A stretch of 64,000 nt of DNA, taken from assembly GCA_023129325.1 (NCBI GenBank), contig JAGMCI010000017.1:13252-77251 (forward strand), read 5' to 3'. This stretch comes from a candidate division WOR-3 bacterium (GTDB taxonomy: Bacteria > Hydrothermota > UBA3073 > JACQXS01 > JAGMCI01). The notes under the pieces were generated by a model. The model did not search any database, was not told where the DNA came from, and saw only the letters and a list, made by a program, of their open reading frames with translations. Shown piece by piece: positions 5,061 through 63,385 of this stretch. Numbering within the stretch: the first letter of the stretch is position 1; every line of letters begins with the position of its first letter. Made by a program: the position numbers and the translations under genes.

Positions 5061-5089
5061 CGTTAGCTAACGAATAACGAATAACGAAC
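5061..5089. repeat. CGTTAGCTAACG palindrome plus (CGAATAA)~2.7
   Basis: The same 12-nt palindrome forms the loop of hairpin 1 in leader copy A (8741-8756). Confidence 0.7.
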
Positions 5090-8766: not shown

Positions 8767-11550
8767 TTACTTTAAAATTATCAACTTTTTTGTAGCCTTA
8801 AAATTATCAGTCTCTATTTTTGCAAAATAAATTCCTGGAGCAGTTCCTGATGCATCCCAGTTTACAGTATACTGACCAGCTTCTTTTCTTGCATTAACTA
8901 ATGTTTTTACCAATCTGCCAGTCACATCGTAAATTTTTAAAGAGACCTTACTAATGGTTGGTAGTTGATACCTAATAGCTGTTGTAAAACTAAACGGATT
9001 TGGATAGTTTTGAAACAAGAAATAAGTTTCTGGAGTTTTCTGTTCTTCCCCTCCAGTTTTACCAGAAGCTGTATCAACAAAAGTTCTAATCATCAAATCA
9101 TAATTTAATCCAAGTTCTGTGAATTTACCCCATTCTCCATTTACGCAATACCAGGCTCTATCGTCAATTGGTAAGGTGGCATCTATCCCTATTGAAGGAG
9201 TTGATGGTAATTCTTGCAGTCCAACATAGAAATCTCCAGAACTAAGCACAATATTTTCAGGCTCTACCTCAAGTTCATTCCAGCCTTCTATTACAGATAC
9301 AGTGTCTGAATAAAGTTCATTCAGGGGTGCTTTCTCACTGGAATTCCAGACTTTGGCAATGAAATCGCCTTCTCCTGTATTAACATAATATTCAAGGACA
9401 ATAAGCTTTGTAGGATATTTATCAGGGGTAAATCTCGCTGCCATATAATGAGAAGTTCCAACATTATAACCAGCATAAGGATTACCGGCATCGTATTTGA
9501 TTTCATAAACTGTAGGTGGATTTGGCATAACTTCAATAGGATAACAATAGCGACTTTCGCCTTTTTGATAAACAGCACTAACCGCATAATAATAGCGTTG
9601 CCGATTTACTACATTAGTATCGAGATAAAAGGTATCGGTAAGTCCTTTTACAAAAGGAGCTCCAAATGATGTTCCCTTCTCTCGTTTGTATAAATTATAA
9701 CTTAATGGAGTAGGTATAGTTGTATCTATTTCCTCAATTTCAGCCCTAATCATCATATTCATAGTAGTAAAAATTGCCCATCCATTATCCCAGCAATAGC
9801 TCCTATACACAGCTGAGCCATCATCCAGCGCTGGACCCCATTGACCACTTCCCATATTATCTATTCCAATATAAAAGTCTCCTGAATCTATTTCAATTCC
9901 ATAAGAAGATAAATCTATTTCATCACATTCCGTATTAGAGGCACGGCTTGGCATTAATTTTTCAATAGTTAGAAGTTTATGCCAGGGAGCTCCAGCACTA
10001 TCATCCCAGATTACAAGGTCGTAAGTTTCATTAAATGTTTCACTTACAGAGATAAAATTAATTATTGCTCTTGAAAGTTTAGCTGGATGGTCTAATGTGA
10101 ACCTGACAGCATAAGGTTGAAGAGTATTATCTACATAATACAGGGTGTCGCTAGTTTTATCTTTATCATAAAAAAGAATCTTAAAAGTTGGGCTCCAGGT
10201 TAATTTAGCTTGATTATCTCCAGTTTCTGCGTGAAGGTTAGATGGAGGATGAAGTTCACGCTCAGTGAGAATTACAAAATCATCCATAAACATACCATCT
10301 CCTAATGGCTCTCCATACGATACGACGATGATTCTAAATTGGATTTTTCTCCCAGCATATTTTGTTATATCAAGTTTTATATCAGGGTACATACTAAAAG
10401 AATACCATATATCATCTTGAAGGATAAAAACATAAGGAGTCGGATTTTCCCAGGGACCTCCATCTATTGAAATTTCTGGATAAAAATAATCAGCATACTG
10501 GTCCGGGACATGGTGTAAGTGTCCTTTCATCGAGAAATCCCATGTTACTTTTGGTTCATCCGGGACTATAATTATAGGTGATATAATAGCATCTTTTAAA
10601 AATGCCTTATAAGTAGTATCAGTGATACAGCATCGTGCACAATGTGTTGGTGAAGGAGCATCTGTTGCTTCTTCCAGATGCCATATATCACTACCAGTAG
10701 CTGATATAGAGGCAGTGGTAAACTCAAGTGTATCGTCCCCTTCGGCATTGCTTGTAAATACATGAGCTACATCAATATTATCTATTTGCCAGCCAATTAA
10801 ATCAGGATTGTATCCTCCTTGTTGGTCATAAGTACAATATGCTGGGTCTGAAGCAAATGCCCACCTGATTTTTACAGTATCTCCAGCATAAGAACTTAAA
10901 TTGACAGTAACATTTTCCCATCCGTCAGAACTTCCACCCCAACCAGGTATTCCTGGTCCTTCACCATGTTCGTATCCAAAACTATAGAAACTCCTACAAT
11001 TGTAGGCGGGACTTACATATGGAGTGTCTAAAACTGTCCAGGTAGCTCCTCCATCAGTCGAGATTCTCACATTACAGCCATCCCAACTATCATAAGGAGG
11101 CTCGGCACCAGCTGGGTCTTCCATTTTCCTATTCTGAACAAATGTAAGTGTGCAAGAGGTGGAAGGTAAAACAATTTCACGGGTATCTAAAACTTGATAC
11201 CAGTGGTTTAAATAACCACGAATAGTATCACCAAGTTCTTCTATATAAATATAATCTCCCATCCACCATGATTTTCCAGTCCCTTCATAGGCTTGAAATG
11301 TATCTGGGTGCCATACAGGAGGATAAGGCACATTTAAGTCCTTATGAGCCCATCTCATTCCTGACTCAAAATTTTCAAGATAAAAAGTATCCAGTCTTGT
11401 AATGTAAAAATCTTTACTTTTAGAAACCTCGTGAATTGTTTTTTCCAGAGATTGCTGAGAGATAGTCTTTATTCCAGAGGGGGGAGGATGTTTCTTTACT
11501 TGCTTAATATTATAAGAACTCGTTGCTAAAATTATAAATAACCATAACAT
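8767..11550 (-). CDS. large secreted protein with FN3-like segment and a T9SS C-terminal sorting domain; catalytic function unknown
   Basis: 927-aa ORF with SD AAAGGAGGT before the ATG. N-terminal hydrophobic MLWLFIILATSS. Contains PPSNLHAETGDNQAKLTWSP. C-terminus FQNYPNPFSF...KIYDVTGRLVKTLVN...GIYFAKI. Confidence 0.7.
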   Translation of the reverse strand: MLWLFIILATSSYNIKQVKKHPPPSGIKTISQQSLEKTIHEVSKSKDFYITRLDTFYLENFESGMRWAHKDLNVPYPPVWHPDTFQAYEGTGKSWWMGDYIYIEELGDTIRGYLNHWYQVLDTREIVLPSTSCTLTFVQNRKMEDPAGAEPPYDSWDGCNVRISTDGGATWTVLDTPYVSPAYNCRSFYSFGYEHGEGPGIPGWGGSSDGWENVTVNLSSYAGDTVKIRWAFASDPAYCTYDQQGGYNPDLIGWQIDNIDVAHVFTSNAEGDDTLEFTTASISATGSDIWHLEEATDAPSPTHCARCCITDTTYKAFLKDAIISPIIIVPDEPKVTWDFSMKGHLHHVPDQYADYFYPEISIDGGPWENPTPYVFILQDDIWYSFSMYPDIKLDITKYAGRKIQFRIIVVSYGEPLGDGMFMDDFVILTERELHPPSNLHAETGDNQAKLTWSPTFKILFYDKDKTSDTLYYVDNTLQPYAVRFTLDHPAKLSRAIINFISVSETFNETYDLVIWDDSAGAPWHKLLTIEKLMPSRASNTECDEIDLSSYGIEIDSGDFYIGIDNMGSGQWGPALDDGSAVYRSYCWDNGWAIFTTMNMMIRAEIEEIDTTIPTPLSYNLYKREKGTSFGAPFVKGLTDTFYLDTNVVNRQRYYYAVSAVYQKGESRYCYPIEVMPNPPTVYEIKYDAGNPYAGYNVGTSHYMAARFTPDKYPTKLIVLEYYVNTGEGDFIAKVWNSSEKAPLNELYSDTVSVIEGWNELEVEPENIVLSSGDFYVGLQELPSTPSIGIDATLPIDDRAWYCVNGEWGKFTELGLNYDLMIRTFVDTASGKTGGEEQKTPETYFLFQNYPNPFSFTTAIRYQLPTISKVSLKIYDVTGRLVKTLVNARKEAGQYTVNWDASGTAPGIYFAKIETDNFKATKKLIILK

Positions 11551-11595: not shown

Positions 11596-12645
11596 TCACA
11601 TAGAAAAGCCAAGTGATATTCTATGAATTCCTGAAAGGTACTGGTGATTTTCGTAACTGTAATCTACAATAATTTGTCCGACTATTGCTACTGGAGTCAT
11701 TATTCCAAATCCAGCGCTTAAGCCACGATTATTTTTCTTTGTATATCCGAGACGGGCAAAGTATTTACTGTTCAAACAATACTCTATCCCTAAAGCATAA
11801 GTTGCTTCTTGGTCAGAAGGGTGAACTAAATCACTAATTAAAGTAAGTTTATAAAGAGAAGTAGATAATAAATCAACTGCAATTCCAAGCTGAAAATTAA
11901 GAGGTAGCGGATAGGACTCAGATTTATAAGTTGCAGTATGTCCTCCAATAATTGTATCCAGCGTCTCACCTGAATAAGCCATATCTGCTCCAAAATTTTG
12001 AATCATGAATCCAAATCTAAGATTCTTAAGTTTAGTATTATAGATTCCACCTATGTCGAATACTATTCCATTAGCCATTAATTTAGCAATATTTTGATTA
12101 ATTCCCTTCACAGTGAAGCCAGCGTTAAACTTATCTGTTAGCATCCTTGAATACGAAATCCCAACTGCAAAATCATTTGCAGAAAAATAATCTCCTGTTC
12201 CTTCCCAGTTGTCCATAGTTGTTTCTTCAATTTTTCCTGACAAAAGAGCAATAGCACTTATTCCTATAGCCCCATCCTTAATTGGAATAACGATGCCAAT
12301 ATTTTCCTCGCTCATTCCAGCAAACAAATTTACATGTGAGAAACTGGCTGATGTGCGTCTAATCTTTGCTAATCCAGCTGGGTTCCAGTAAATTGCATCT
12401 ACTCCTTCTGCAAAAGCAGAATAAGCTCCTCCCAATGATAAAGCTCTTGCTCCTCCACCAATGGACAGGAAACTTGCCCCACATCCTCCAAGTCTTGCAA
12501 AAGCTAAAGTAGGCAGAAAGAAGTAAGAAGTGAGAAGTAAGAAGTAGGAAGTGAGAAGAAAACAGTTTTTAAAAAGGGTTCGAGGGAAAACAAACCGTTG
12601 TGCTCCTAACATTTCACCTTTCACATTTAACATTTCGTCTTTCAT
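11596..12645 (-). CDS. PorV/PorQ-family outer-membrane beta-barrel protein
   Basis: GGGARALSLGGAYSAFAEGVDAIYWNPAGLA near the N-terminus and alternating beta-strand pattern to the C-terminal ...ISLGFSM, as I recall for the PorV/PorQ (UPF0164-like) family. Strong SD AGGAGG. It sits among T9SS cargo genes. Confidence 0.6.
   Translation of the reverse strand: MKDEMLNVKGEMLGAQRFVFPRTLFKNCFLLTSYFLLLTSYFFLPTLAFARLGGCGASFLSIGGGARALSLGGAYSAFAEGVDAIYWNPAGLAKIRRTSASFSHVNLFAGMSEENIGIVIPIKDGAIGISAIALLSGKIEETTMDNWEGTGDYFSANDFAVGISYSRMLTDKFNAGFTVKGINQNIAKLMANGIVFDIGGIYNTKLKNLRFGFMIQNFGADMAYSGETLDTIIGGHTATYKSESYPLPLNFQLGIAVDLLSTSLYKLTLISDLVHPSDQEATYALGIEYCLNSKYFARLGYTKKNNRGLSAGFGIMTPVAIVGQIIVDYSYENHQYLSGIHRISLGFSM
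12520..12558 (-). repeat. heptamer array (GAAGTRR)x5.5, ACTTC family, encoding the PorV-like signal-peptide core
   Basis: GAAGTAA GAAGTGA GAAGTAA GAAGTAG GAAGTGA GAAG encodes LLTSYFLLLTSYFF. Confidence 0.85.
12608..12645. repeat. AACATTT-type heptamer run over the first codons of the PorV-like gene
   Basis: AACATTTCACCTTTCACATTTAACATTTCGTCTTTCAT. Confidence 0.65.
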
Positions 12646-14408: not shown

Positions 14409-14420
14409 TTTATCCTCCTA

Positions 14421-14512
14421 TTTGCATTGTTAATTGCTAATTGTTAAATGTTTTATGTTCCCACTGCTTTTTGCATTTAACATTTCACATAAAACATTCC
14501 ACATCTCACATG
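14421..14512. repeat. intergenic heptamer arrays (GTTAATT/GCTAATT, then ACATNNN) with an internal inverted repeat
   Basis: GTTAATTGCTAATTGTTAA (19 nt) is identical to 22029-22047. AATGTTTTATGT / ACATAAAACATT form an inverted pair. Confidence 0.8.
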
Positions 14513-14513
14513 C

Positions 14514-17500: not shown

Positions 17501-17819
17501 TATTGGCACTCAACATATCTAATGATAGCCAGACACAATTCCACGTCCCATCAAAATATCTACATCCTTGTGGGCAGGGGAAATATCCTCCTTGCAGAGT
17601 ATTACTCACAGTCCAGTCTGTTAAATTACCTATACCAGTCCAGTGAACCCACCAGAAATCAGCTGCCTTATCTTGTGGCTTAAATGGTTTTGAGATACCT
17701 CTCTGGGTCTGGACTTCAGGTGTCTGATAATAAGCAAATCCCTGCACCCCAATAAAAACTCCCATTAAAAAAATGATAATTGCTAATTGATAATTGCTAA
17801 TTGATAATTTATTCCTCAT
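14514..17819 (-). CDS. large secreted protein with C-terminal Ig-like (T9SS/FlgD-Ig-like) sorting domain, immediately downstream of the TonB-dependent receptor
   Basis: 1101-aa ORF with SD AGGAGG. Signal MRNKLSISNYQLAIIIFLMGVFIGVQGFA. C-terminus VVPNPYYV...CTIRIFNVAGLLIKTIEHD...GLYIYQVVTSDGKDKVGKFAIIR. Confidence 0.65.
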   Translation of the reverse strand: MRNKLSISNYQLAIIIFLMGVFIGVQGFAYYQTPEVQTQRGISKPFKPQDKAADFWWVHWTGIGNLTDWTVSNTLQGGYFPCPQGCRYFDGTWNCVWLSLDMLSANMHGLCGEYPAGTNQFYNWASGVWVGAKYPDKIEGPDTTWQPRVSKGAYYSDLGAMNLPELTSAGEAGDISGTGLSFSNQILPIGYGYSHEGQFVFKQYGAEQEDYQALWPFADMDINVRREDSTTHVDTTNGDIISMEDSYACAGDWIPKNDASCIWIRDTGPYDVWGLGIRIEQRTYSWNYEYNNAYIYFNWKIKNMNSFPLKDIYVGYFMDNDIGSGVSAEGQAAEDDLIDYDRSLNLGYSYDADSYEPGWETPAGFIGCIMCKTPGNLGMTGFQTWTRTGEFGMLIDDDGQDSLKYVALSTARANIDTFQRTTVPNDVRQLSCSGPYVTLLPDSEISFTIAVVVAYTLAELKTRAGYALEQFKSGYLGFAPPPSPQLSIVPSDRKVYLSWDNKPEKYVCKMTHDSSTFAGYRVYRSSSGLPGKWDLLADYDIQSDSTKDTVLVDHPKGISKANISFVRFLKDSVLNEDKYSIRFLSSKEFILQNDSADGEIYEYNRNAIADGGGYCIMVNPDSAYPTNTGYLSGREIYFDGIFISITDAVYDNENPGIQRFPTAGDVFTVQNFKGKSIGGQKGIKHYYIDEGLTNGITYYYSVTSYSCERPLLGITGLESGLSGKTYWAIPRKDPVNFELPSCKVTRISGEGDSKVEVIIVDPSALTGDEYKISFLPVSPGKEEVGYWRLTDETKDTIVLDSVTAFHGEQNIPVTDGFSVIMNTYTETVLDTEKVIDATYSKWEKGESNYEFFITTQKDTNIKRHEFDVKVVEIPGSFETWTPDSFECMSPITVINKKWGAARFFFDDNNPGEHPNKADSIFNKGDKIYFYAPGDTVKNKYMYALEVMVDTANIIAPEKDDIYYVKLLYPSKVVDSYKIETVSATTEKTDYKLDNVRVVPNPYYVKAGWEGEMERKIYFANLPSKCTIRIFNVAGLLIKTIEHDETSGPVFKTSAQNETGFSGTHAWDLLTKEGLETVSGLYIYQVVTSDGKDKVGKFAIIR
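17775..17809 (-). repeat. heptamer array (GATAATT GCTAATT)x2.5 encoding the signal-peptide start of the 1101-aa protein
   Basis: It encodes KLSISNYQLAII. Confidence 0.85.
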
Positions 17820-17831
17820 CTTTCCTCCTGT

Positions 17832-20800
17832 TTAAAATTTAATTTCTATGCCAAAACGAATTATCCTTGGATTACTGTAATTTGTTGGGTCATTATAATA
17901 TCGTTCCCAATTAGCAAGGTCATCTAAATACATATCCCAACCACTTTTATAATTCTTGCCATGCCTTGCGTTATAATCTTCATACTGACTCTCATAATTT
18001 TCTTTTATCCATTTTGGTGGGTCTCCATTATCATCTGGTTTCCCAGTTCTTGAGTATATATCTACAACATTCTTTGTGTTAAGTAAATTCCTGACATCTG
18101 CAAAAAATCCAATATCAAGACCTCTGAATTTAAATCCTTTATCAATTCTTAAGTCAATATTGCTTATGGCGGGCATTCGTTTTGAGCCAACTTCTTGGGG
18201 CCTGCCCTTTGAATCAGTTGGCGTGTAAGGAGCCCCTGACATAAATACAAATTGAAGGTTAGCATTTAAATTTGATAGAGGCTGTATCTTCAGGGCAAAT
18301 GGTCCCCATTTCTCTGGAATGTTAAAATTTAATCCAGTCTTAATCGTATGAGTTATGTCAAACTCAAGTGGGTATTCCTTTTTTGGTAGAGATATCCCTG
18401 TGTTCATATACCTGTAATAATACTCTCTTGACGAAGAGCCAGTGCCTTTTGCATCCTGGTATGAATATGATATCGTGCCTGATAAAAATCTTCTCGCCCT
18501 TTTTGTAAATATCACATCTATGCCCTTGACTGTTGCAAAATCTTGTAGCTGGTAAATTGTGTATGGAGCAAGTTTGCCCTTGAATATAGTGCGCTTCTCA
18601 CGAGTCGAAAGAAGTGTCTTGACATCTTTAAAATAAGCCGAAATCTCACCAGCCATGTCCGGAGTAAATGCATACCTGAACCCTCCCTCATACATAATCT
18701 CCTTTTGTGGGGGAAGATTCGGATTCCCGATTATCGGAAGTCCATTTGTTATATCAGCATCTAAATTTTGATAAATGTCTGCAAAATTTAATGGTTGGAA
18801 AAAATGACCATAATTTGCATACATTACAGATTTATCAGTCATCGCATAAGAAATGCCAAATCTTGGTGAAAATTGAATCTTTGCCTCTGCTTCTGCCTGA
18901 CCAGCAGATAATGAATCTAAATTAATATAAAAATCAGATTTCGGGTTAAAGTAATCATATCTTAAACCAGCCTTTAAAACCATATCTTCATATTCAATCT
19001 TGTCTGAAAGATATGCTGATGCTGTAAGTGGCTTCTTATCATAATGGTCCATATACGGATTCTTATTTACAAATTGAAGATATGTGAGGTCAAGATCATG
19101 TTTCTCAATATCAGCACCTGCCTTAATCTCATTGTATTTATTTACCTGGGAAATGAGATGAAAACTTGCAGAAAGTCGGGTCGTGTTCCTATCATGCCAC
19201 ATAGGATAGAAATAATAGCAAAATCTCCCAAATTCGTCCCTGTTATATCTTGTCATATACAACCCTCCCGATGGTTCTATTGAATCTTCTGGGAAATCCG
19301 TATTAATATACTTCCTAACATCGTTAATGTATTTGTCAAGACTAAATGTATGATAATATATATATAAAGTCTCCCCATCTTCCACTCCCGTATATACAAG
19401 TTTGTCTCCGCCAGGCACAGAACCTCCCTTTAAATAAGTCCCCGTTTGATAATATCTGTAATTCAAGGCATCAACAATTTCGTTGAAATCTGTCTCGTCT
19501 CCCCATTCCCATTCCCCTGTCGATGAGTTCCATTGTCCTAAATGTCGCACATTCTCATAATACCACATCCATGCCCTGTCTTCCGACCATCCCTCCTCCC
19601 ATGTCCCGTATTCAGGATTATACCAGCCAGAATCCCTTGCCACTGCTACCCAGGATAACCTCGTTCCAATTTCCTTGAAATCATTATAATCCTTACCATC
19701 CTGAGAGCTATACTTATGATAAGTGTTAAATCTCCCGATATTTAATGTGTAAAAAGTCTTCGATGACACAGAATGCGTTAGCTTTAAATTGATTTGTGAG
19801 TTCCCTCGCTGATACAGAGGTAATTCATCTATCCATTTTCCTCTTGAATATGAATGCCAGTACCCATGATACCTTCTATATGCATAATTACTTGATAAAG
19901 TTGCCTTAAATGCATTACTCAATCTCCACGCTAATTTCAATGTCCCTTTCCCTTCTATCCCATCGCTGTGCGGAAGATAAGAATCATACCCCCTGAGACC
20001 CCCAGAGAGGAAAAAACTACTCCTCTTAAGATAGGGAATAGGCCCACCCAGTGTAATGCTTCCATCATTAACCCCAAAATTATATCCCTGGTTAAATAAT
20101 TTACCCTGTTTATACAAATTAGAACTCTTCTTGAAAATATTATCCGTCGTGTATTTTATTCCACCACTATACTTTGTCCCCCCTTCCCTCGTCACCACAT
20201 TTACAACCCCAGACATAGCCCTCCCATACTCAGCATCAAATCCACCCGAAATTATAAGCATCTCCGAAATCGCATTGTTGTCAAGAATAGCCCCAGAAGT
20301 CCCATAAACAGGGTCAGTTGTGTTGATACCATCAACAATGTATACAACCTCATCTGACCTTCCACCTCTAATATGTAATCCACCCGAACTACCACGCCCA
20401 GTCTCAACCGAGCCCGCTTGCAAAGCAACTACATCCTCATAATTCGTTACAGGCATCTTAGATATCTCTTTCCCAGAAGTGCGCTTTGACGATGATGTTA
20501 CATCCCGCTCAATTATAGGCCTCTTGGCAGTCACTATAACCTCTTCTCCTTTTATTACAGTGGGCTCAAGTCTGAAGTTGACAGTGGTAGTCATATCAGT
20601 GGATACTTTTACATTCTTAACTTTCACAGCCTTGTAACCAATCATAGTAGCCTTTACTGTATAAATACCTACAGGAACATTAACAATAAAAAAATCTCCT
20701 AATTTATCCGTTGCTGCTCCCATAGTCGTTCCCTCAATAATGACATTAACAAAAGGAAGTGGCTCTCTTGTCCCTGTATCAATAACTTTCCCCGCAATCT

Positions 20801-20912
20801 TGCCCGTTATCCCTGCAAATAAAGCAGTAGGCAGTAGGCAGTAAGTAGTAAGTAGTAAGAAAATTGAAAATTGAAAATTGAAAATTGAAAATTTATATAA
20901 TTTATTACGCAT
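17832..20912 (-). CDS. TonB-dependent receptor with N-terminal carboxypeptidase-regulatory-like domain (SusC-like architecture)
   Basis: Start moved to ATG 20912 (AGGAGGT upstream); the 21 upstream codons of the track ORF lie in a repeat element. GKVIDTGTREPLPFVNVIIEGT...GIYTVKATMIGY (CarbopepD_reg-like). Plug GGLHIRGGRSDEVVYIVDGINTTDP. C-terminal ...RIIRFGIEIKF. Confidence 0.85.
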   Translation of the reverse strand: MRNKLYKFSIFNFQFSIFLLLTTYCLLPTALFAGITGKIAGKVIDTGTREPLPFVNVIIEGTTMGAATDKLGDFFIVNVPVGIYTVKATMIGYKAVKVKNVKVSTDMTTTVNFRLEPTVIKGEEVIVTAKRPIIERDVTSSSKRTSGKEISKMPVTNYEDVVALQAGSVETGRGSSGGLHIRGGRSDEVVYIVDGINTTDPVYGTSGAILDNNAISEMLIISGGFDAEYGRAMSGVVNVVTREGGTKYSGGIKYTTDNIFKKSSNLYKQGKLFNQGYNFGVNDGSITLGGPIPYLKRSSFFLSGGLRGYDSYLPHSDGIEGKGTLKLAWRLSNAFKATLSSNYAYRRYHGYWHSYSRGKWIDELPLYQRGNSQINLKLTHSVSSKTFYTLNIGRFNTYHKYSSQDGKDYNDFKEIGTRLSWVAVARDSGWYNPEYGTWEEGWSEDRAWMWYYENVRHLGQWNSSTGEWEWGDETDFNEIVDALNYRYYQTGTYLKGGSVPGGDKLVYTGVEDGETLYIYYHTFSLDKYINDVRKYINTDFPEDSIEPSGGLYMTRYNRDEFGRFCYYFYPMWHDRNTTRLSASFHLISQVNKYNEIKAGADIEKHDLDLTYLQFVNKNPYMDHYDKKPLTASAYLSDKIEYEDMVLKAGLRYDYFNPKSDFYINLDSLSAGQAEAEAKIQFSPRFGISYAMTDKSVMYANYGHFFQPLNFADIYQNLDADITNGLPIIGNPNLPPQKEIMYEGGFRYAFTPDMAGEISAYFKDVKTLLSTREKRTIFKGKLAPYTIYQLQDFATVKGIDVIFTKRARRFLSGTISYSYQDAKGTGSSSREYYYRYMNTGISLPKKEYPLEFDITHTIKTGLNFNIPEKWGPFALKIQPLSNLNANLQFVFMSGAPYTPTDSKGRPQEVGSKRMPAISNIDLRIDKGFKFRGLDIGFFADVRNLLNTKNVVDIYSRTGKPDDNGDPPKWIKENYESQYEDYNARHGKNYKSGWDMYLDDLANWERYYNDPTNYSNPRIIRFGIEIKF
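20824..20893 (-). repeat. ten heptamers (5x GYAGTAR, then 5x GAAAATT) encoding the TBDR signal peptide
   Basis: It encodes KFSIFNFQFSIFLLLTTYCLLPTA. Confidence 0.9.
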
Positions 20913-20990
20913 CTTTACCTCCTGCCGTCCGTTCTTGTAAACTTGTTTACTCAGAACGGCGAGCATCCCGCACATAAATTATGTGCGGGA
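20913..20990 (-). repeat. two-hairpin leader element plus SD, copy B, upstream of the TonB-dependent receptor gene
   Basis: Sense: TCCCGCACATAATTTATGTGCGGGA-TGCTCG-CCGTTCT-loop-AGAACGG-ACGGCAGGAGGT-ATG. Confidence 0.85.
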
Positions 20991-21090
20991 TAGCCCATGG
21001 TTTTTGTTTTTTGCCACAAAGGCTTTGCTGTTGACTGCAGCACCGCACATAAACTGTCATGCTGAACTTGTTTCAGCATCTCAACACACT

Positions 21091-21105
21091 CCGCCTAAGG
21101 CGGAT
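21091..21105. repeat. 15-nt perfect palindrome TCCGCCTNAGGCGGA
   Basis: TCCGCCTAAGGCGGA. Confidence 0.9.
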
Positions 21106-21116
21106 TGGTTAATATG

Positions 21117-21147
21117 TAGGGGCAGACCTTGCGTCTGCCTAAACTCC
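21117..21147. repeat. GTAGGGGC-family element (short form)
   Basis: GTAGGGGCAGACCTTGCGTCTGCCTAAACTC with hairpin GGCAGAC/GTCTGCC. Confidence 0.85.
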
Positions 21148-21168
21148 TTTAAATCATTATCCATCTTT

Positions 21169-21217
21169 TGGTTAATTGGTTAATTGGTTAATTAACCACT
21201 CACCATTTAACCAATCG
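21169..21217. repeat. (GGTTAAT)x3 plus CTCACCATTTAACCA module
   Basis: An inverted copy of this module lies at 25305..25361. Confidence 0.8.
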
Positions 21218-21270
21218 GCATTGGGTGACGAAAGCCGTAACCGAACTACGAAACGGGCTTCCTCACCTAT
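21213..21270. repeat. modular GGTGACGAAAGCCGTAACCGAACTACGAAACGGGCTTCCTCACC element
   Basis: It shares CCGTAACCGAACTACGAAACGGGCTTCCTCACCTAT with 22968..23028. Confidence 0.85.
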
Positions 21271-21283
21271 AACCTTTTAATTT

Positions 21284-21378
21284 CCCACTTCTAACTTCCC
21301 CACTTCTAACTTCCCACTTCTCCACTTCTAACTTCCCACTTCCCACTTCTCCACTTCCTACTTCTCCACTTCCCACTT
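21284..21378. repeat. ~13-unit degenerate heptamer array (CYNACTT, ACTTC family) directly after the tonB stop
   Basis: CCCACTT CTAACTT CCCCACTT CTAACTT CCCACTT CTCCACTT .... Confidence 0.9.
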
Positions 21379-21978
21379 CTATTCTTTAAGTCTAAATCTC
21401 ACTGGCTGATGAACTTTTACGCATACCGGTCTATCCCTTTGTTGGGCAGGTGAAAATTTCCATTTCCTTGCTGCCCTCATAGCCGCTTGGTCACATAATT
21501 CATTTAAAGATTGTAAAACCTTGACATTTATAACTCTTCCACTCGTGTCTATTATAAGTTCTAAGTAAACAGTGCCCTCAATCTCAGCTTTCCTCGCTAA
21601 CTCCGGATATTCTGGCTCTACATAAAGCTTAAGTTGTGGCTTGACTTCAACTGCCCAAAACTCATAAACCTCCGGAGTAGTGAGCTTTGGAGGTCGCTTC
21701 TCAAAACCAAAATCAGTCCTGTCAATAGTAGATGCTTCTATTTCTTTTTCACTCTCCGCAGCAACTGGCATCTTTGGCTTTGGAGGAGGAGGGGGTTCCT
21801 TTAATTGTTGCATCTGGGGTGGAAGTTGTATGGCTCGTACAACTGCATCAACTTTTGGCTCCCATTTCCTGGGTCTCGTTTTGGGAATAAATAAACAAGC
21901 TAAAATGCAGGCAATAATGGCTATGAGGAAAGAAAGTTTATTATGAAATGGTAACCGCTCCTTTAAATCATTATTCAT
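21379..21978 (-). CDS. tonB: energy transducer TonB
   Basis: TM anchor, Pro-rich PPQMQQLKEPPPPPKPKMP and C-terminal YPELARKAEIEGTVYLELIIDTSGRVINVKVLQS...ARKWKFSPA. Start set to ATG 21978 because the 14 upstream codons are encoded by a GTAGGGGC repeat copy. Confidence 0.75.
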   Translation of the reverse strand: MNNDLKERLPFHNKLSFLIAIIACILACLFIPKTRPRKWEPKVDAVVRAIQLPPQMQQLKEPPPPPKPKMPVAAESEKEIEASTIDRTDFGFEKRPPKLTTPEVYEFWAVEVKPQLKLYVEPEYPELARKAEIEGTVYLELIIDTSGRVINVKVLQSLNELCDQAAMRAARKWKFSPAQQRDRPVCVKVHQPVRFRLKE

Positions 21979-21987
21979 AAATATTAT

Positions 21988-22018
21988 GTAGGGGCAGACC
22001 TTGCGTCTGCCTAAACTC
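21988..22018. repeat. GTAGGGGC-family element, identical copy directly upstream of tonB
   Basis: The same 31 nt as 21117..21147. Confidence 0.85.
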
Positions 22019-22028
22019 ACTAATTTCC

Positions 22029-22063
22029 GTTAATTGCTAATTGTTAATTTTGCATTGTTTATT
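22029..22063. repeat. GNTAATT heptamer array between tonB and exbD
   Basis: GTTAATT GCTAATT GTTAATT TTGCATT GTTTATT. Confidence 0.8.
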
Positions 22064-22066
22064 TTT

Positions 22067-22477
22067 CTACCCTCCCTTTTCTTTTAAAGTTGAAAAGGAT
22101 ACTTTTAATGCCTTCGCGTCTTTAAATTGGTCAAGAATATCTGAAAGAACGCCATATTCCCCATCTTTGTCCATGACAATGGAAACAATGAGATTTGGGT
22201 TTATGCTTACCTTTCTCCCCATTATTGGGCCCACATAATCAGTGGTTACTATATTGTCATCTATTGATATTGCTCCTTCTGATGAAACCCAAATATGAGT
22301 TATGTTCTTCTTAGGTAGCTTTTTTGTCGCTTTTGCAGCAGGAATAGTTACACGAATCCCACGCTCTGCTACAAAAACCGTTGTTAACATGAAAAAAATG
22401 ATGAGTAAAAAAGCAATATCAGCCATCGAGCAAGTTGGTATCTCTGGACCCTTTTTGGGTGCTGTTTTAAGCTTCAT
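22067..22477 (-). CDS. exbD: ExbD/TolR biopolymer transport protein
   Basis: EIPTCSMADIAFLLIIFFMLTTVF single TM followed by a periplasmic domain, typical ExbD/TolR layout. Confidence 0.85.
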   Translation of the reverse strand: MKLKTAPKKGPEIPTCSMADIAFLLIIFFMLTTVFVAERGIRVTIPAAKATKKLPKKNITHIWVSSEGAISIDDNIVTTDYVGPIMGRKVSINPNLIVSIVMDKDGEYGVLSDILDQFKDAKALKVSFSTLKEKGG

Positions 22478-22486
22478 AATCCTTTT

Positions 22487-22541
22487 CCTACACCCTACAC
22501 CCTACACCCTACACCCTACACCCTATTATACCCTACACCCT
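22487..22541. repeat. (CCTACAC)x4 perfect plus degenerate units between the two exbD genes
   Basis: Four perfect units at 22487-22514. Confidence 0.9.
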
Positions 22542-22967: not shown

Positions 22968-23028
22968 TCGTCAATCGGTTACGGTGACGAGACCCGTAAC
23001 CGAACTACGAAACGGGCTTCCTCACCTA
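22968..23028. repeat. same modular family, between exbD and exbB
   Basis: TCGTCAATCGGTTACGGTGACGAGACCCGTAACCGAACTACGAAACGGGCTTCCTCACCTA. Confidence 0.85.
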
Positions 23029-23043
23029 TCCGCCTAAGGCGGA
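23029..23043. repeat. 15-nt palindrome TCCGCCTNAGGCGGA
   Basis: TCCGCCTAAGGCGGA, 1 nt before the exbB stop. Confidence 0.9.
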
Positions 23044-23696: not shown

Positions 23697-24530
23697 TTAA
23701 AAAATGTCAAGTCTTTTTTTAAAAAAATTCCACTCTTTTGTTGAATACTTCTTTAGTAATTTATCTGTAAGCTCTCTTTCCTCATTTGTAAAAGTTCCTT
23801 CAATAATTTTTATCCCGCTTGCTTTAATTCCTTGCTTTAAAGCTATTGTGATTTCCTTGAGCTTGAAGTCACGACCTAAAATTTCTGAAAGACAGGATGT
23901 AGAGCGTCCGTCAACTGATGGATAGGATACGAAATTTGGGGGTGAGATTGGTATAGTTCCTTGTTGAAGGATTGTTCCATTAGCTCTCCTTTGGGCACTT
24001 CCGAGTATCTTTTTTCCATTGACTTGAAGTTCATATCTCATAAAAGAGCTAAAACAAACTGGAATCCGTTCATAGTGATTGGTAGTTCTCACTATCTGTG
24101 TCTGCCTGCTCCGCTCCGACAAGCGAAGCGGGACGGAGCCGGCGAGGCAGGCATCAATATTTAGAGTCTTTAGCCCAAGGGCAAAAATAAGGCTTACCTT
24201 TTTATAACTCTCAAACACAGAGCCTCCGAAAGTTGGATTTGTTTCATTAGTTACGAGTGAGTAAGTGAGGTCGCCATTGTGTACCACTGCTCTGCCTCCA
24301 GTAATTCTGCGTATAATAGGAAACCCATACTTCTTAAGATTCTTTATGTCCCGAATAGATTGCGAGTACCCTATCGTGATAGCAGGTGGCGAAAAAGTAT
24401 AAAATCTTAAAGTAGAATCGTATCCGGCAGTACACAAATTGTTAGATTGTGCTTTCCTGAATAATGCTTCATCTAATGCCATATTATAGAATCCATCTCT
24501 TGCCCAAGTATTTATTAGTCTAAGAATCAT
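23697..24530 (-). CDS. lipoate-protein ligase / octanoyltransferase family protein (BPL/LPL catalytic domain)
   Basis: RRITGGRAVVHNGDLTYSLV and GKKILGSAQRRANGTILQQGTI match my memory of LplA/LipM-type domains. The gene carries an in-frame GC-rich repeat (LAGSVPLRLSERSRQTQ). Confidence 0.65.
   Translation of the reverse strand: MILRLINTWARDGFYNMALDEALFRKAQSNNLCTAGYDSTLRFYTFSPPAITIGYSQSIRDIKNLKKYGFPIIRRITGGRAVVHNGDLTYSLVTNETNPTFGGSVFESYKKVSLIFALGLKTLNIDACLAGSVPLRLSERSRQTQIVRTTNHYERIPVCFSSFMRYELQVNGKKILGSAQRRANGTILQQGTIPISPPNFVSYPSVDGRSTSCLSEILGRDFKLKEITIALKQGIKASGIKIIEGTFTNEERELTDKLLKKYSTKEWNFFKKRLDIF
24102..24152. repeat. CCGCTCCGACAAGCGAAGCGGGACGG-family copy, in frame in the lipoate ligase-like gene
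   Basis: Core at 24111-24138 with CTGCC/GGCAG flanks. Read antisense it gives LAGSVPLRLSERSRQ. Confidence 0.85.
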
Positions 24531-24544: not shown

Positions 24545-24660
24545 AAATCCCAAGCATCAAATAACAAACAAATCACAAATCACAAATGATTTTGTTTGGG
24601 ATTTTGTTCATTAGGATTTGAATATTGTTTGGAATTTAGTGCTTGATATTTGAAATTTCT
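24545..24660. repeat. inverted CAAAT-rich heptamer arrays (long imperfect hairpin)
   Basis: AAATCCCAA...AAATCACAAATCACAAATG faces TTTGTTTGGGATTTTG...TTTGAAATTT. Confidence 0.7.
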
Positions 24661-25304: not shown

Positions 25305-25361
25305 GAACGGTGAGTGGTTAAATGGTGAGTAATTAACCAATTAACCAATTAACCATTTAAC
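25305..25361. repeat. (TAACCAAT) array plus GGTGAG module, inverted copy of 21169..21217
   Basis: GAACGGTGAGTGGTTAAATGGTGAGTAATTAACCAATTAACCAATTAACC. Confidence 0.8.
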
Positions 25362-26179: not shown

Positions 26180-26183
26180 CTCA

Positions 26184-26213
26184 CTTCCTACTGCTTACTG
26201 CCTACTCCCTACT
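26184..26213. repeat. heptamer array CTTCCTA CTGCTTA CTGCCTA CTCCCTA
   Basis: It is the reverse complement of the GCAGTAG family seen at 20824. Confidence 0.8.
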
Positions 26214-26846: not shown

Positions 26847-26862
26847 TTCTTTACGAAGGCTA

Positions 26863-26887
26863 TCCCGCACATAAATTATGTGCGGGA
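26863..26887. repeat. solitary TCCCGCAC...GTGCGGGA hairpin
   Basis: TCCCGCACATAAATTATGTGCGGGA, identical to hairpin 1 of leader copy B. It lies between two genes of the membrane operon. Confidence 0.85.
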
Positions 26888-28540: not shown

Positions 28541-28556
28541 AATGTGGGAGGATATT

Positions 28557-28591
28557 AAACATAAAACATTTAACAATTAACATTTAACAAT
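28557..28591. repeat. AACATTT/TAACAAT heptamer array upstream of the Wzc-like gene
   Basis: AAACATA AAACATT TAACAAT TAACATT TAACAAT. Confidence 0.8.
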
Positions 28592-30806: not shown

Positions 30807-31862
30807 GTGTTTTTTGTAATACTTAGTATTTCTACACTCCCCGTGCGAGCAAGATGTGAATTTAAGTCTCAGTCGGAGTTGATTGATAGTCCAACAGCGC
30901 ATGTTTCTGATGATTGGTTTGCTCTTGGAATGACCTTTTCTATTACAACTAAAGATGACCCTCACTGGGCTGTTGGTAATGCCTATTTGAAAGTCCAGAT
31001 TCCTGGGAAATTATTCCTTGGATTGTCAATTTTTAATCTTAGAGAAGCCTTGGTAGCATTTGATGCTGGATGGAAGGTAAATAAGGAAACTCAAAATATG
31101 CCAGCTATTATGTTGGGATGTTTATACCTTTCTCCTTATCGCTGGATTTCTCCAGTTGGTCATGATAGTACTGTCGGCTGGGCAGATGACCAAACTTATG
31201 ATACGAAAAGGAATTCAGAACAATTTTCTGCTTTTGTTGTTGCTACAAAAGATTTTGGACCTTATGGACTTTATAATGTTGGAATAGGAAGGGGTTCGCT
31301 GGTTGGCTATGGACCAAGGTCTCATCTCTTTAATACTGATATGTTTATGAGAGACCATCATAACGACGCTGTAGGAATTATTTGGGGTGGCGAGGTAAAT
31401 ATTAGAAAAAATATATTTGGAGTGCTTGACTTTGATGGAAGGGATTTTAATGTTGGAATTAAGATTAAAGGTAAATGGTATCAAATAGGAATCGCCGCAG
31501 CTAAACTTGAACACCGATTAGGAGGTTCTCCAATACTTTATCCTCGTTTTGCAGCAGGGTTTATAATAAATTCACATATATTAAAAAAATTGCCTCCCAA
31601 AATTCCAAAAATTGGAGCTGTTGCCGGAGTAGTACGGGATAAAAATACCCTGCAACCGTTAGTTGCTAAACTCGTGTTTACCGAAACTACCCTTCTTCCA
31701 GTAGCCACTGACAGTAACGGAAAATATACTGTTTCTATTATGCCTGGAACTTACAGGGTGAGGGCTGTTGTTTCAGGATATTATTGGCTTGAGAAAAAAA
31801 TTTATGTCGCTCCTCAAATGACAACAATATGTAACTTTGAATTAACGCCAAAGCCAAAATGA
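30807..31862 (+). CDS. putative outer-membrane protein with C-terminal carboxypeptidase-regulatory-like domain
   Basis: Track ORF 30681..31862. The first ~40 codons are repeat DNA, so I propose the in-frame GTG at 30807 (FFVILSISTLPVRA signal-like). C-terminus GVVRDKNTLQPLVAKLVF...GKYTVSIMPGTYRVRAVVSGY. The start is uncertain. Confidence 0.45.
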   Translation: MFFVILSISTLPVRARCEFKSQSELIDSPTAHVSDDWFALGMTFSITTKDDPHWAVGNAYLKVQIPGKLFLGLSIFNLREALVAFDAGWKVNKETQNMPAIMLGCLYLSPYRWISPVGHDSTVGWADDQTYDTKRNSEQFSAFVVATKDFGPYGLYNVGIGRGSLVGYGPRSHLFNTDMFMRDHHNDAVGIIWGGEVNIRKNIFGVLDFDGRDFNVGIKIKGKWYQIGIAAAKLEHRLGGSPILYPRFAAGFIINSHILKKLPPKIPKIGAVAGVVRDKNTLQPLVAKLVFTETTLLPVATDSNGKYTVSIMPGTYRVRAVVSGYYWLEKKIYVAPQMTTICNFELTPKPK

Positions 31863-31911
31863 AAAATCAAAAATTAAAATGTAAAAATCAAAATCACAAA
31901 TTAAAAATTGA
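31863..31911. repeat. A-rich heptamer array (AAAATCA AAAATTA AAATGTA ...)
   Basis: AAAATTAAAATG[C/T]AAAAATCAAAAT recurs at 37868-37895. A related run lies at 44064-44097. Confidence 0.8.
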
Positions 31912-31926
31912 AGTAAAAGGTTATAG

Positions 31927-31951
31927 GTAGGGGCAACCCTTGCGGTTGCCC
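31927..31951. repeat. GTAGGGGC-family element (variant)
   Basis: GTAGGGGCAACCCTTGCGGTTGCCC. Confidence 0.8.
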
Positions 31952-31957
31952 AAAATA

Positions 31958-32027
31958 AGTAGTTCGGTTACGGCTTTCGTCACCCAAAGCCGATTGACGA
32001 AACGGGTCTCGTCACCGTAACCATTTA
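31958..32027. repeat. same modular family, inverted and module-shuffled, upstream of leuS
   Basis: AGTAGTTCGGTTACGGCTTTCGTCACCC...CCGATTGACGAAACGGGTCTCGTCACCGTAACC. Confidence 0.8.
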
Positions 32028-32042
32028 TCCGCCTCAGGCGGA
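32028..32042. repeat. 15-nt palindrome TCCGCCTNAGGCGGA
   Basis: TCCGCCTCAGGCGGA, 12 nt before the leuS ATG. Confidence 0.9.
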
Positions 32043-32053
32043 TTAACCAAAAG

Positions 32054-34732: not shown

Positions 34733-34771
34733 ATAAAGGAAACGGATTGATATTTAATATTTAATTTTATT

Positions 34772-36555: not shown

Positions 36556-36556
36556 C

Positions 36557-36622
36557 TACCTGCCCCGCTCCGACAAGCGAAGCGGGACGGAGACGGCAGG
36601 CAGGTATTTTTTTCTTTTTTTT
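36557..36622 (+). terminator. Rho-independent terminator built from a CCGCTCCGACAAGCGAAGCGGGACGG-family repeat copy
   Basis: Outer stem TACCTGCC / GGCAGGTA encloses the repeat core and is followed by TTTTTTTCTTTTTTTT. It lies 34 nt after the acetyltransferase stop. Confidence 0.7.
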
Positions 36623-37855: not shown

Positions 37856-37863
37856 TTTTTAAT

Positions 37864-37996
37864 ATCAAAAATTAAAATGCAAAAATCAAAATTATTGTAG
37901 GCACGATTTCAAATCGCACAGGCAATTTATGATTAAGATTAAAAAAGTTTTGCTTTTTAATATGTGATTTTGATATTTGATTTTTGATATTTAATA
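37864..37996. repeat. inverted ATCAAAA / TTTTGAT heptamer arrays flanking the TGTAGGCAC hairpin
   Basis: Left array at 37864-37891 and right array at 37948-37996. Confidence 0.75.
37896..37924. repeat. TGTAGGCAC-family hairpin (short)
   Basis: TGTAGGCACGATTTCAAATCGCACAGGCA, flanked by inverted ATCAAAA / TTTTGAT arrays. Confidence 0.8.
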
Positions 37997-38006
37997 TTCT
38001 TTAATT

Positions 38007-40809: not shown

Positions 40810-40851
40810 ATCAAAAATTAAATATCAAATATCAATTTGAATTTCTTCTAC

Positions 40852-44068: not shown

Positions 44069-44224
44069 AAATCAAAATTACATATTAAAATGCAAAAATT
44101 ACAACAACAGACTGAAGACCGAAGACATAAGACTGACGACAAAAAAGTCTACGGTCTCTGGTCTTAAGTCTATAGCCTTTCTTTTTAATTTTTGATTTGT
44201 CATTTTGATATTTGATTTTTAATG
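44064..44224. repeat. nested inverted heptamer arrays between cmk and plsC
   Basis: The outer pair is ATCAAAA (44064-97) / TTTTGAT (44183-224; it encodes the cmk C-terminus). The inner pair is AGACNNA x4 (44109-40) / NNNGTCT (44147-71), separated by AAAAAA. Confidence 0.8.
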
Positions 44225-51525: not shown

Positions 51526-51635
51526 TAAGACTTTTCTGCTCTCTTTGACCTTTTCTCTTTTCTCTTTTCTTTAATTGATTTTTTAGGGCTCTTTTTAACC
51601 TTTTTATCTTTAGCACCCTTATCTTTTCTACCCAT
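51522..51635 (-). CDS. 37-aa lysine/arginine-rich small protein (not in the ORF track)
   Basis: My own translation gives MGRKDKGAKDKKVKKSPKKSIKEKRKEKRSKRAEKSY*. GGAGGA lies 7 nt upstream of the ATG, preceded by TTGACT-16-TATATA. Confidence 0.4.
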   Translation of the reverse strand: MGRKDKGAKDKKVKKSPKKSIKEKRKEKRSKRAEKSY

Positions 51636-53010: not shown

Positions 53011-53020
53011 GTTAGTTTAC

Positions 53021-54119: not shown

Positions 54120-54152
54120 AACCACTCCGTGGTGAAGGTCGTGGTGAACCAC
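54120..54152. repeat. same element, intergenic (exbD to deacetylase)
   Basis: AACCACTCCGTGGTGAAGGTCGTGGTGAACCAC. Confidence 0.85.
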
Positions 54153-63376: not shown

Positions 63377-63385
63377 TATTCTAAT

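Follow-up and report, generated by a model that had tools for sequence, protein, structure and literature searches.

Heptanucleotide tandem arrays between and within the genes of an uncultured bacterium related to candidate division WOR-3

We analyzed 64,000 nt of contig JAGMCI010000017.1 (assembly GCA_023129325.1; this whole stretch is called the window below), in which tandem arrays with a period of 7 nt lie both between and within the genes. The genes of the window include those for type IX secretion system (T9SS) cargo proteins with Por_Secre_tail domains, for an ExbB-ExbD-ExbD-TonB-TBDR operon (TBDR, TonB-dependent receptor), and for LeuRS, IspH, S1, Cmk, and ThiL. The nearest protein matches are sequences from metagenome-assembled genomes (MAGs; 63% for IspH and 67% for the TBDR), followed by Candidatus Stahlbacteria, WOR-3, and Zixibacteria; relatives of the LeuRS reach at most 49% identity among the matches listed. 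In 90% protein clusters built from a collection of 15 billion proteins, only the window's own sequences were recovered, namely seven singletons, and tonB together with its own shorter-start version. Judging from these sequences, the host is an uncultured lineage near WOR-3, of the type of the Fibrobacteres-Chlorobi-Bacteroidetes (FCB) group. A preliminary reading made from the letters of the window alone (the sequence-only reading) had proposed a T9SS-bearing FCB-type host, which agrees with the Por_Secre_tail domains and with WOR-3 and Ca. Stahlbacteria as the closest named relatives.

Tandem Repeats Finder (TRF), run on the whole window with a score cut-off of at least 30, returned 29 rows with period 7, compared to a mean of 1.77 (maximum 5) in 30 dinucleotide-preserving shuffles of the window. 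The sequence-only reading, which had counted more than 20 loci with degenerate arrays and had set a genome-wide comparison with shuffled sequence in advance as a check on itself, is supported on both points within the window. In an independent lag-diagonal test, lag 7 gave 18 segments, lag 14 gave 7, lag 8 gave 3, and the remaining lags (2-6 and 9-13) gave none, compared to about 0 segments in Markov-1 random sequence; the signal is therefore specific to 7 nt. By the shuffle and Markov controls, the arrays are long simple-sequence repeats (LSSRs), that is, tandem repeats of a 5-11 nt unit that are longer than expected by chance for the composition (window G+C is about 37%). Past the window, the contig has three further arrays within the following 9.1 kb, which brings the stretch covered to 73 kb. 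Pairs of arrays that differ by at most one mismatch after rotation and strand normalization number 43, compared to 19 expected from composition, and none of 2000 permutations reached 43; the families ACTTCCC/GAAGTRR, CAATTAG, ATCAAAA, AGTAGGN, and GAAATGT occur at three to six loci each. The unit families listed in the sequence-only reading are thus real and recur above the composition null, except that “TAACCAA” has a period of 8 nt (TTGGTTAA/AATTAACC).

The arrays are concentrated in the intergenic 6.9% of the window, where they cover 12.8% of the bases (0.68% of coding bases), yet about 40% of all array bases lie inside genes; these in-gene arrays, and other repeat families in the same spacers, had been overlooked at first. 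There is a negligible chance that the arrays are an assembly artefact or chance low-complexity sequence. The source is metagenome-assembled and repeats can be mis-assembled, but shuffling yields 1.8 rows against the 29 observed, and the in-gene arrays preserve the frames of proteins whose flanks align with homologs. In addition, NCBI and Logan assemblies of one relative are 100% identical across the arrays, and JGI and ENA assemblies of another relative have arrays in common; arrays are thus present in independent assemblies of relatives and are not confined to this contig.

The largest array (21282-21380, reverse strand; 13.6 copies by TRF) is opened by the stop codon of tonB (21379-22020, reverse strand; Pfam TonB_C), in agreement with the initial description of about 13 units directly after that stop. 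Its sense strand can be divided into 13 GAAGTNN(N) units, of which nine measure 7 nt and the other four 8 nt, and it contains no C; the RNA has a minimum free energy of 0 kcal/mol and carries about 10 GGA motifs in 95 nt. The arrangement of the units was considered as the source of this unstructuredness and rejected, as shuffles also fold to 0 (z-score 0.27): the array lacks structure because its composition is without C, not because of how its units are arranged.

At least nine arrays lie in frame within intact genes, and every in-gene array keeps the reading frame. They encode the signal-peptide cores of the TBDR and of two neighboring envelope proteins, loops of IspH, ThiL, and the CCA-adding enzyme, and the tail of Cmk. 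The TBDR (reverse strand) starts at the ATG at 20912, after an AGGAGG Shine-Dalgarno (SD) site and in agreement with the called 1026-aa gene, and its signal peptide, MRNKLYK-FSIFNFQFSIF-LLLTTYCLLPTA-LFA|G, has a core made from two arrays: five perfect copies of GAAAATT (20859-20893; sense AATTTTC), encoding KFSIFNFQFSIF, and 5.4 copies of AAGCAGT/AGGCAGT/AAGTAGT (20822-20859; sense TTACTRC), encoding LLLTTYCLLPTA. The N-terminal signal peptide of a 1101-aa protein (SISNYQLAIIIF) comes from TGATAAT/TGCTAAT ×5.1 (17774-17809, reverse strand), and the signal-peptide core of a FadL-like outer-membrane protein (LLTSYFLLLTSYFFLPT) from AAGTAAG ×7.4 (12507-12558, reverse strand; sense CTTACTT); ACATTTC ×4 (12609-12636, reverse strand; sense GAAATGT) lies at the 5′ end or in the leader of the same gene. 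The CCA-adding enzyme has two in-frame arrays on the forward strand, ACTTCCC ×4.7 in its head domain (38109-38141, encoding TSHFSLPTSHF) and AAATCAG ×4.7 (38293-38325, encoding KIRNQKSEVRNL). On the reverse strand, ACTTTCC ×4.6 (42881-42914; sense GGAAAGT) encodes an IspH loop (GSGKWKVESGKF) with a net gain of 3 aa relative to 13 homologs, and a GGGAAGT array (44941-45003) encodes a ThiL loop and is interrupted by a 31-nt dispersed element (44960-44990). The Cmk tail IKNQISK is encoded by the first arm of an outer ATCAAAA pair in the cmk-plsC spacer. Alignments with solved structures and the 13 homologs place the 11-12 aa encoded by an array in variable loops, with a net gain of 3-5 aa. Pure insertion was ruled out for IspH and the CCA-adding enzyme, in which the 11-12 array-encoded residues mostly replace a loop of similar length.

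The closest MAG (GCA_030018315.1; loci L082 and L087) shares 63-67% protein identity and the same gene order with the window, over alr-panB-thiL-cmk-plsC-ispH-rpsA-cbiQ-truA and over DUF6754-...-lplA-exbB-exbD-exbD-tonB-TBDR-1086aa-NHL-FadL-like-S8. It contains about 2.4 arrays per 10 kb, including TTCGTCA ×4.3 in the FadL-like signal peptide, TTACCAA ×4.7 in the S8 protease gene, and one in ThiL; arrays were also found in a Stahlbacteria locus (L084), in JGI loci L089-L092, and in L093 and L094. The spacers of L087 are shorter than those of the window (7 vs 65 nt for exbD1-exbD2, and 105 vs 466 nt for tonB-TBDR), and cmk and plsC overlap in L082, where the window has a spacer given as 131 nt in one comparison and as 103 nt in another. 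Because the spacers of this relative are short and mostly free of arrays, most arrays of the window are lineage-specific gains.

Where the window and a relative have an array at the same site, the units can differ. The ThiL loop is made entirely of (AAGTGGG)n in the window and entirely of (AAATGCA)n in L082, at exactly the same site and between conserved nucleotide flanks (GGAGAGATAATAGAA and AATTATAGATGAG), and the FadL-like signal peptide has CTTACTT in the window vs TTCGTCA in L087 at the same place. In the TBDR signal peptide, the AATTTTC ×5 and TTACTRC ×5.4 of the window correspond to perfect GGTCTTT ×5.7 in L089, L091, and L093, to perfect TTACTGC ×4.3 in L094, and to a weak TTTTATT array in L087; L090 and L092 have none. 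Some units are shared: L094 has the TTACTRC/TTACTGC family at the same place in the TBDR as the window (and GTTATTG ×4.4 in the signal peptide of the gene after the TBDR), the Cmk tail IKNQ(I/T)SK is encoded by an ATCAAAA array in both the window and a Stahlbacteria MAG, and the ATCAAAA family recurs in the window, L087, L084, L090, and L001.

One pair of near-identical strains shows the process at a smaller scale. L089 (JGI) and L093 (ENA) are 99.76% identical over 4141 nt without gaps, and heptamer arrays, which make up 83 nt of this length, contain 6 of their 10 mismatches (binomial P = 1.3e-8). Half of these six lie in the first unit of the signal-peptide array and are just what the gain of one flank heptamer (TTATCGG) and the loss of one GGTCTTT unit would leave, without a change of frame. 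The rest comprise one substitution in a later unit of that array and two in the array immediately upstream of the gene. No other direct sign of unit-wise gain and loss was obtained, and this one concerns a relative and not the organism of the window. A comparison of L087 with L088 was discarded as a test of polymorphism, the two sequences being 100% identical.

As the best explanation of these arrays, we lean with moderate confidence towards heptanucleotide LSSRs that slippage generates and homogenizes and that are retained at sites under little constraint. Whole 7-nt units would be added and removed by replication slippage or by some comparable misalignment, and this tendency may be a mutational property of the whole WOR-3-related clade rather than of one locus. 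The arrays persist only at weakly constrained sites (operon spacers, the hydrophobic cores of signal peptides, surface loops of enzymes, and C-terminal tails) and they evolve in concert: within an array the units stay alike, but the units of orthologous arrays diverge from one related lineage to the next. The length changes seen in genes are confined to those that preserve the frame. The ThiL loop with its two heptamers, the signal peptide with three, and the compensated unit swap between near-identical strains are clear small cases of concerted microsatellite evolution in genes. Most of the arrays are probably not individually adaptive and may be neutral. Several of their properties would then be side effects: C-free or A/U-rich arrays would leave unstructured leaders just upstream of SD sites, inverted pairs of arrays would form long hairpins at gene ends, one array would give a G-quadruplex motif, and perfect 5-unit arrays in genes for outer-membrane proteins would be expected to frameshift at a raised rate. 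Several points weigh against this explanation. Slippage alone leaves unexplained the near-exclusive choice of 7 nt over 5, 6, 8, or 9 nt; nor does it explain the same unit families at many loci (the 43 vs 19 expected pairs). An in-frame array is hard to seed in an essential gene, since the intermediate states are frameshifts. The JGI samples L089 and L091 carry identical arrays. Finally, some arrays are part of larger dispersed modules, with AAGGYTATAGRY following three of them, which hints at copying over a purely local origin.

The arrays in the signal peptides of the TBDR (20822-20893), the 1101-aa protein (17774-17809), and the FadL-like porin (12507-12558) have the architecture of phase-variable loci, with a non-3n unit in the 5′ coding region of a surface-protein gene, and they could be contingency loci, i.e. 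frameshift switches under selection, for example for escape from phages that use these proteins as receptors. There are precedents in the CTCTT repeat in the leader peptide of Neisseria opa (PMC3960869), and in H. influenzae, which has (AACAACC)n at or within a gene for a TonB-dependent receptor (PMC2651432). The arrays here resemble both in the non-3n unit, in lying where the signal peptides of outer-membrane proteins (a TBDR among them) are encoded, and in having perfect runs of at least five units (the TBDR array GAAAATT ×5 is perfect). Five of about ten in-gene arrays lie in signal-peptide or N-terminal regions, which make up less than 2% of the coding DNA; the pattern recurs with different units in orthologs of four lineages, including the perfect GGTCTTT ×5.7 and TTACTGC ×4.3 arrays; and a unit was both gained and lost between L089 and L093. 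We nevertheless consider such switches unlikely. All of the about eight recovered ortholog sequences are in the ON frame, so that there is no ON/OFF polymorphism among them, and the difference between L089 and L093 is frame-neutral, which shows selection to keep the gene on. Like arrays occur in housekeeping genes and spacers, among them the genes of the essential cytoplasmic proteins IspH, ThiL, CCA-adding enzyme, and Cmk, where switching off would be harmful, and many arrays are degenerate and hence less prone to slippage. Moreover, T-rich heptamers give Leu, Phe, Ser, Thr, and Tyr in every frame, so plain tolerance of signal-peptide cores explains the enrichment. The host also differs from these precedents in being an environmental organism and not a host-adapted pathogen. 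A broader version, in which clade-wide opa-like 7-nt switches in the signal peptides of uptake operons of free-living bacteria would serve, probably, as phage-receptor bet-hedging while the same process remodels the loops of essential enzymes, seems equally doubtful to us. If the signal-peptide arrays do switch, they would represent phase variation in an environmental, non-pathogenic setting.

The intergenic arrays invite a different question. In operons they occupy the gap from the upstream stop codon, which they often overlap, to the SD site of the next gene; these SD sites are strong and AGGAGG-like. From the end of many arrays it is only 0-17 nt to the SD site or start codon, a closeness that is nearly unavoidable in spacers so short, and the orientation of the arrays is mixed. 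Besides the largest array, the tonB cluster (all reverse strand) contains TAATTGC ×2.7 in the exbD2-tonB spacer (22031-22049, by TRF), with 19 nt shared with the site at 14429, and a perfect CCTACAC ×5.6 in the exbD1-exbD2 spacer (22487-22525, by TRF). The mRNA strand of the latter, (GGGTGTA)5.6, is a predicted canonical G3-N4 G-quadruplex motif, and it is the only array with at least four G3 tracts and loops of at most 7 nt. ACAAATC ×2.9 lies in the spacer upstream of lplA (24568-24587, reverse strand, by TRF), and an ACTGCCT-type array ×4.4 (26183-26213, reverse strand; sense AGTAGGN) fills the whole of a 34-nt spacer and runs into the start codon. Elsewhere on the reverse strand, TAACGAA ×4.1 (5068-5097) fills the 35-nt spacer from the stop of the S8 protease gene to the next T9SS-cargo gene; ATTGTTA ×3.9 and CATTTCA ×5.4 (14426-14511), which are in part mutually complementary, occupy the greater part of the 105 nt that separate the 1101-aa gene from the NHL-repeat gene; and ATATCAA ×4 (40808-40835) lies in the S1-cbiQ spacer. 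On the forward strand are ATTTAAC/AACAATT ×5.1 before a Wzz/tyrosine-kinase gene (28554-28589, by TRF), an AAAATCA-type array ×7.9 that begins at the stop of a 393-aa gene (31856-31909), ATATTTA ×3.6 from the leuS stop to the sugar-transferase start (34750-34773), and a perfect CTTTTCT ×3 downstream of a transglutaminase-like gene (51550-51570).

Two structural modes can be told apart: single arrays are not self-complementary, and several spacers combine an array with its reverse complement, which would form long hairpins. The cmk-plsC spacer (44049-44237, reverse strand) has an outer inverted ATCAAAA pair around an inner inverted AGACNNA pair, giving a long nested hairpin with a predicted fold of -40.6 kcal/mol (z-score -5.7 vs shuffles). 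Other paired spacers are an ATCAAAA-family inverted pair between tRNA-Ser and cca (37861-37998, arms 37861-37892 and 37949-37998, forward strand; z-score -2.4), the inverted pair CAGTAGT (63231-63261) and CTAACTA/ACTACTG (63346-63376, forward strand, by TRF; z-score -2.3 for 63228-63377), and the spacer of the 1101-aa and NHL-repeat genes (14409-14513; z-score -2.8).

These features raise the prospect that intergenic arrays are selected as cis-acting RNA elements within polycistronic mRNAs, whether as multivalent sites for an RNA-binding protein (S1, a cold-shock protein, or CsrA, on the model proposed for TAACTGA repeats), unstructured enhancers of translation or standby sites ahead of SD sequences, G-quadruplex regulators, or stabilizing or terminating hairpins. 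It would fit the closeness of array ends to SD sites and start codons, the fully unstructured and GGA-rich RNA of the tonB array, the sense-strand quadruplex motif (comparable to that of Xanthomonas GGGAATC; PMC4692102), the inverted pairs that fold far better than shuffles, and the recurrence of the ATCAAAA family across the clade. Even so, this explanation seems quite unlikely to us. The orientation of 14 co-directional intergenic arrays relative to transcription shows no signal of bias (on the sense strand, G exceeds C in 7 and C exceeds G in 4, with 3 ties), the many unrelated unit families argue against a single binding protein, the orthologous spacers of the closest relative work without arrays, and the units at the same site differ between lineages. 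A scan of 20850-22100 for terminators and promoters, which covers the tonB-TBDR spacer, found no terminator-like site and promoter-like matches at background level only; Rfam at gathering thresholds matched only tRNA-Ser, with no known RNA family for the structured tonB-TBDR spacer.

The recurrence of unit families above the composition expectation could also mean that arrays are spread by copying within small composite elements, similar to repetitive extragenic palindromic sequences and bacterial interspersed mosaic elements (REP/BIME) or to miniature inverted-repeat transposable elements (MITEs), rather than by local slippage. Two dispersed array segments reported in the sequence-only reading are consistent with such copying: an identical 19-nt copy, GTTAATTGCTAATTGTTAA, lies at 22029 and 14429 (given earlier as 14427), and a 48-nt segment at 21169-21216 matches the inverted 25355-25312 with 89.6% identity. 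The latter belongs to a period-8 array, TTGGTTAA ×3.2 with its own imperfect complement (21168-21217, reverse strand; inverted copy at 25312-25361). Arrays also adjoin dispersed hairpin modules (21110-21146 = 21982-22018; 21224-21270 = 22983-23029; 21212-21249 = 31959-31996 inverted), AAGGYTATAGRY follows three arrays, and other small elements are tolerated in frame in genes of the same genome. We regard copying as improbable all the same, given that no transposase, RAYT-like gene (REP-associated tyrosine transposase), or reverse transcriptase is found in the window, that array flanks have no conserved termini or target-site duplications, that a change of unit at one orthologous site is unlike excision and reinsertion, and that the only observed strain difference is a local duplication of a flank heptamer, i.e. 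slippage. Like the spacers of enterobacterial genomes with REP/BIME and of genomes with Rickettsia palindromic elements (RPEs), those of the window are mosaics of short dispersed modules, and RPE-like in-frame hairpin elements occur in LeuRS, LplA, and PlsC; the difference is that the units of those systems are palindromic, whereas tandem heptamers are not, and no RAYT-type transposase was seen in the window.

Slippage-generated LSSRs, the explanation we favor, have many counterparts in other bacteria. We compared densities in a convenience sample of 81 loci (80 LeuRS loci fetched for taxonomy, plus locus L081 from the source contig), in which the median is 0.45 period-7 TRF rows per 10 kb, compared to 4.5 for the window. 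Nostocales control loci reach 4.9 (Aliinostoc), 3.1, and 2.65 (two Nostoc MAGs), and loci with several heptamer families were found in Syntrophobacteraceae (L055, 4.5), Omnitrophota (L037, 3.6), Thermodesulfobacteriota (L080, 3.1), and Thermodesulfovibrionia (L052, 2.8); heptamer-rich loci in unrelated phyla mean that the phenomenon is scattered over phyla. The arrays of L055, L080, L037, and L052 are often inverted pairs. Some units also occur in the window, namely AGGCAGT (from L055) and AAAATCY (from both L055 and Nostoc), and L037 has (CCCTAAA)n-like arrays, whose unit is that of plant telomeres.

The short tandemly repeated repetitive (STRR) sequences of Calothrix, Anabaena, and Nostoc have the units CCCCAGT (STRR1), TTGGTCA (STRR2), and CAACAGT (STRR3). 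They are like the arrays of the window in having a tandem, often degenerate 7-nt unit in 3-14 copies, several dispersed families, a mainly intergenic location, occasional inverted pairs, and an equal TRF density per 10 kb. They are unlike them in that the host here is an FCB/WOR-3-related heterotroph and not a heterocystous cyanobacterium, the units here are G+C-poor, and many arrays here are in frame in coding regions. A script that detects STRR1-3 in Aliinostoc (L039) and Nostoc (L051) finds no dimer of any of them in the window, even with one mismatch allowed. The “STRR-like” label of the sequence-only reading thus holds for form (tandem, degenerate, mostly intergenic heptamers in dispersed families) and for the Nostocales-like density, but not for the unit sequences: the arrays are of the same class as cyanobacterial STRRs, not of the same sequence family.

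Heptanucleotides are reported to be the most abundant LSSRs in most prokaryotic genomes (Mrazek et al. 2007, as summarized in PMC4679880 and PMC4692102), and slippage linked to the polymerase footprint has been proposed for 7-nt repeats (PMC4679880, PMC4692102). The arrays of the window share with these LSSRs the over-representation of 7 nt, the intergenic bias, and the inverted pairs; variation in length and sequence between close relatives would be a further parallel, judging from L089 and L093. One of them, (GGGTGTA)n, is also a G-quadruplex motif, like the Xanthomonas GGGAATC repeats (PMC4692102), but the window has several unrelated unit families and not one dominant G-rich family, and GGGAATC is absent from it. 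Heptamers just upstream of start codons, and sometimes at the periphery of open reading frames (ORFs), have been reported in Beggiatoaceae, Cyanobacteria, and five Bacteroidetes (MacGregor 2015, PMC4679880), the latter being Flexibacter litoralis, Gramella forsetii, Aequorivita, Elizabethkingia, and Paludibacter (PMC4679880). The TAACTGA repeats of that study (MacGregor 2015, PMC4679880) lie a few nt upstream of start codons in operons, a position that many arrays here also have, in mixed orientation and in spacers that leave little other room. Similar to the arrays here, they overlap the upstream stop, occasionally reach the ORF periphery, and are present in FCB-group bacteria beside “other heptamer direct repeats”. 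Unlike the case in Beggiatoaceae, where strong SD sites are rare, such sites follow the arrays here, and there are arrays in the loops of essential enzymes; TAACTGA dimers are absent from the window. The suggestion that heptamers are undescribed in T9SS-bearing FCB lineages therefore does not hold at the level of the phylum group, with five Bacteroidetes already reported. For WOR-3 or Stahlbacteria, the papers that could be searched contained no report of heptamer repeats. What is new is the host lineage, in which some of the placements are unusual; heptamer arrays themselves are known from many bacterial phyla. The window adds an uncultured FCB lineage near WOR-3/Stahlbacteria to those with STRR-type richness in heptamers, at a density like that of Nostoc, and, together with the Syntrophobacteraceae, Thermodesulfobacteriota, Omnitrophota, and Nitrospirota loci, supports 7-nt slippage as a general bacterial mutational mode that is extreme in scattered lineages.

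Other dispersed elements share the spacers and genes of the window with the heptamers. The motif AAGGYTATAGRY is directly downstream of arrays at three gene 3′ ends (21265-21276, reverse strand; 31917-31928, forward strand; 44168-44179, reverse strand); with one mismatch allowed it has 9 matches vs 3.0 expected, and all three exact matches adjoin arrays. BIME-like mosaics of shared hairpin modules in varying order are found at 20916-21276, 21982-22018, 22968-23029, 26858-26887, 31917-32045, and 53020-53061. The modules of the tonB-cluster spacers and the leuS leader are GGCAGACGCAAGGTCTGCC, CCGCCTTAGGCGG, CCCGCACATAATTTATGTGCGGG, and GTAGTTCGGTTACGG...TCGTCACC, without a match to an Rfam family.

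The leuS gene (32054-34732, forward strand) contains two 96%-identical copies of a 126-nt element in frame (33173-33298 and 34121-34246; 42 codons). The ends of this element, GTAGGGGCG...CGCCCCTAC, are inverted, and it has a core of 41 nt that occurs twice. LeuRS residues 374-414 have no counterpart in the LeuRS of T. thermophilus, and residues 689-735 stand in place of 17 aa; three insertions relative to that protein consist of small repeats. From their sequence, the 126-nt copies appear to be intragenic insertions of an RPE/MITE-like kind, and the gene that carries them is essential. Four copies of a GC-rich hairpin element (CTGCCCCGCTCCGACAAGCGAAGCGGGACGGAG..CAGG) are present: in lplA (24102-24151, inverted), in leuS (32751-32810), at the 3′ end of plsC (43353-43405), and in an intergenic region (36556-36604). 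Three of the four copies are in frame in coding sequence, the LeuRS copy being a 9-aa insertion, and the intergenic copy is followed by a T-run and resembles an intrinsic terminator (-28.6 kcal/mol, z-score -4.3). A third element, CCACTCCGTGGTGAAGGTCGTGGTGAACCAC, of 31-33 nt, is found at 44960-44990, 47040-47072, and 54120-54152; its ThiL copy sits within the heptamer array, in frame, as a repeat nested in a repeat.

Compared to the syntenic L082, several window proteins contain many lineage-specific insertions: +10, +20, +8, and +25 aa in Alr (alr, 47079-48416), +13 aa in TruA (truA, 39438-40208), and others in the products of cbiQ (40195-40809) and cmk (44200-44880). The C-terminal extension of alr comes from a repeated, SD-containing leader element that it has in common with the TBDR leader (20916-20973 = 47082-47144). 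A 927-aa T9SS-cargo gene (8767-11550), encoding a MAM-like domain and a Por_Secre_tail, lies between the FadL-like and S8 protease genes; the operon of L087, collinear in all other respects, lacks this gene.

In practice, arrays of this kind disturb MAG assembly and gene calling, the latter through misplaced starts and spurious N-terminal extensions. Mechanical ORFs and some called genes of the window are extended upstream by arrays past their likely true starts (11596-12645, 17832-20975, and 43343-44068); for example, the spurious N-terminal “MKDEMLNVKGEML” of the FadL-like gene is array-encoded and distorts the annotation of its start site.

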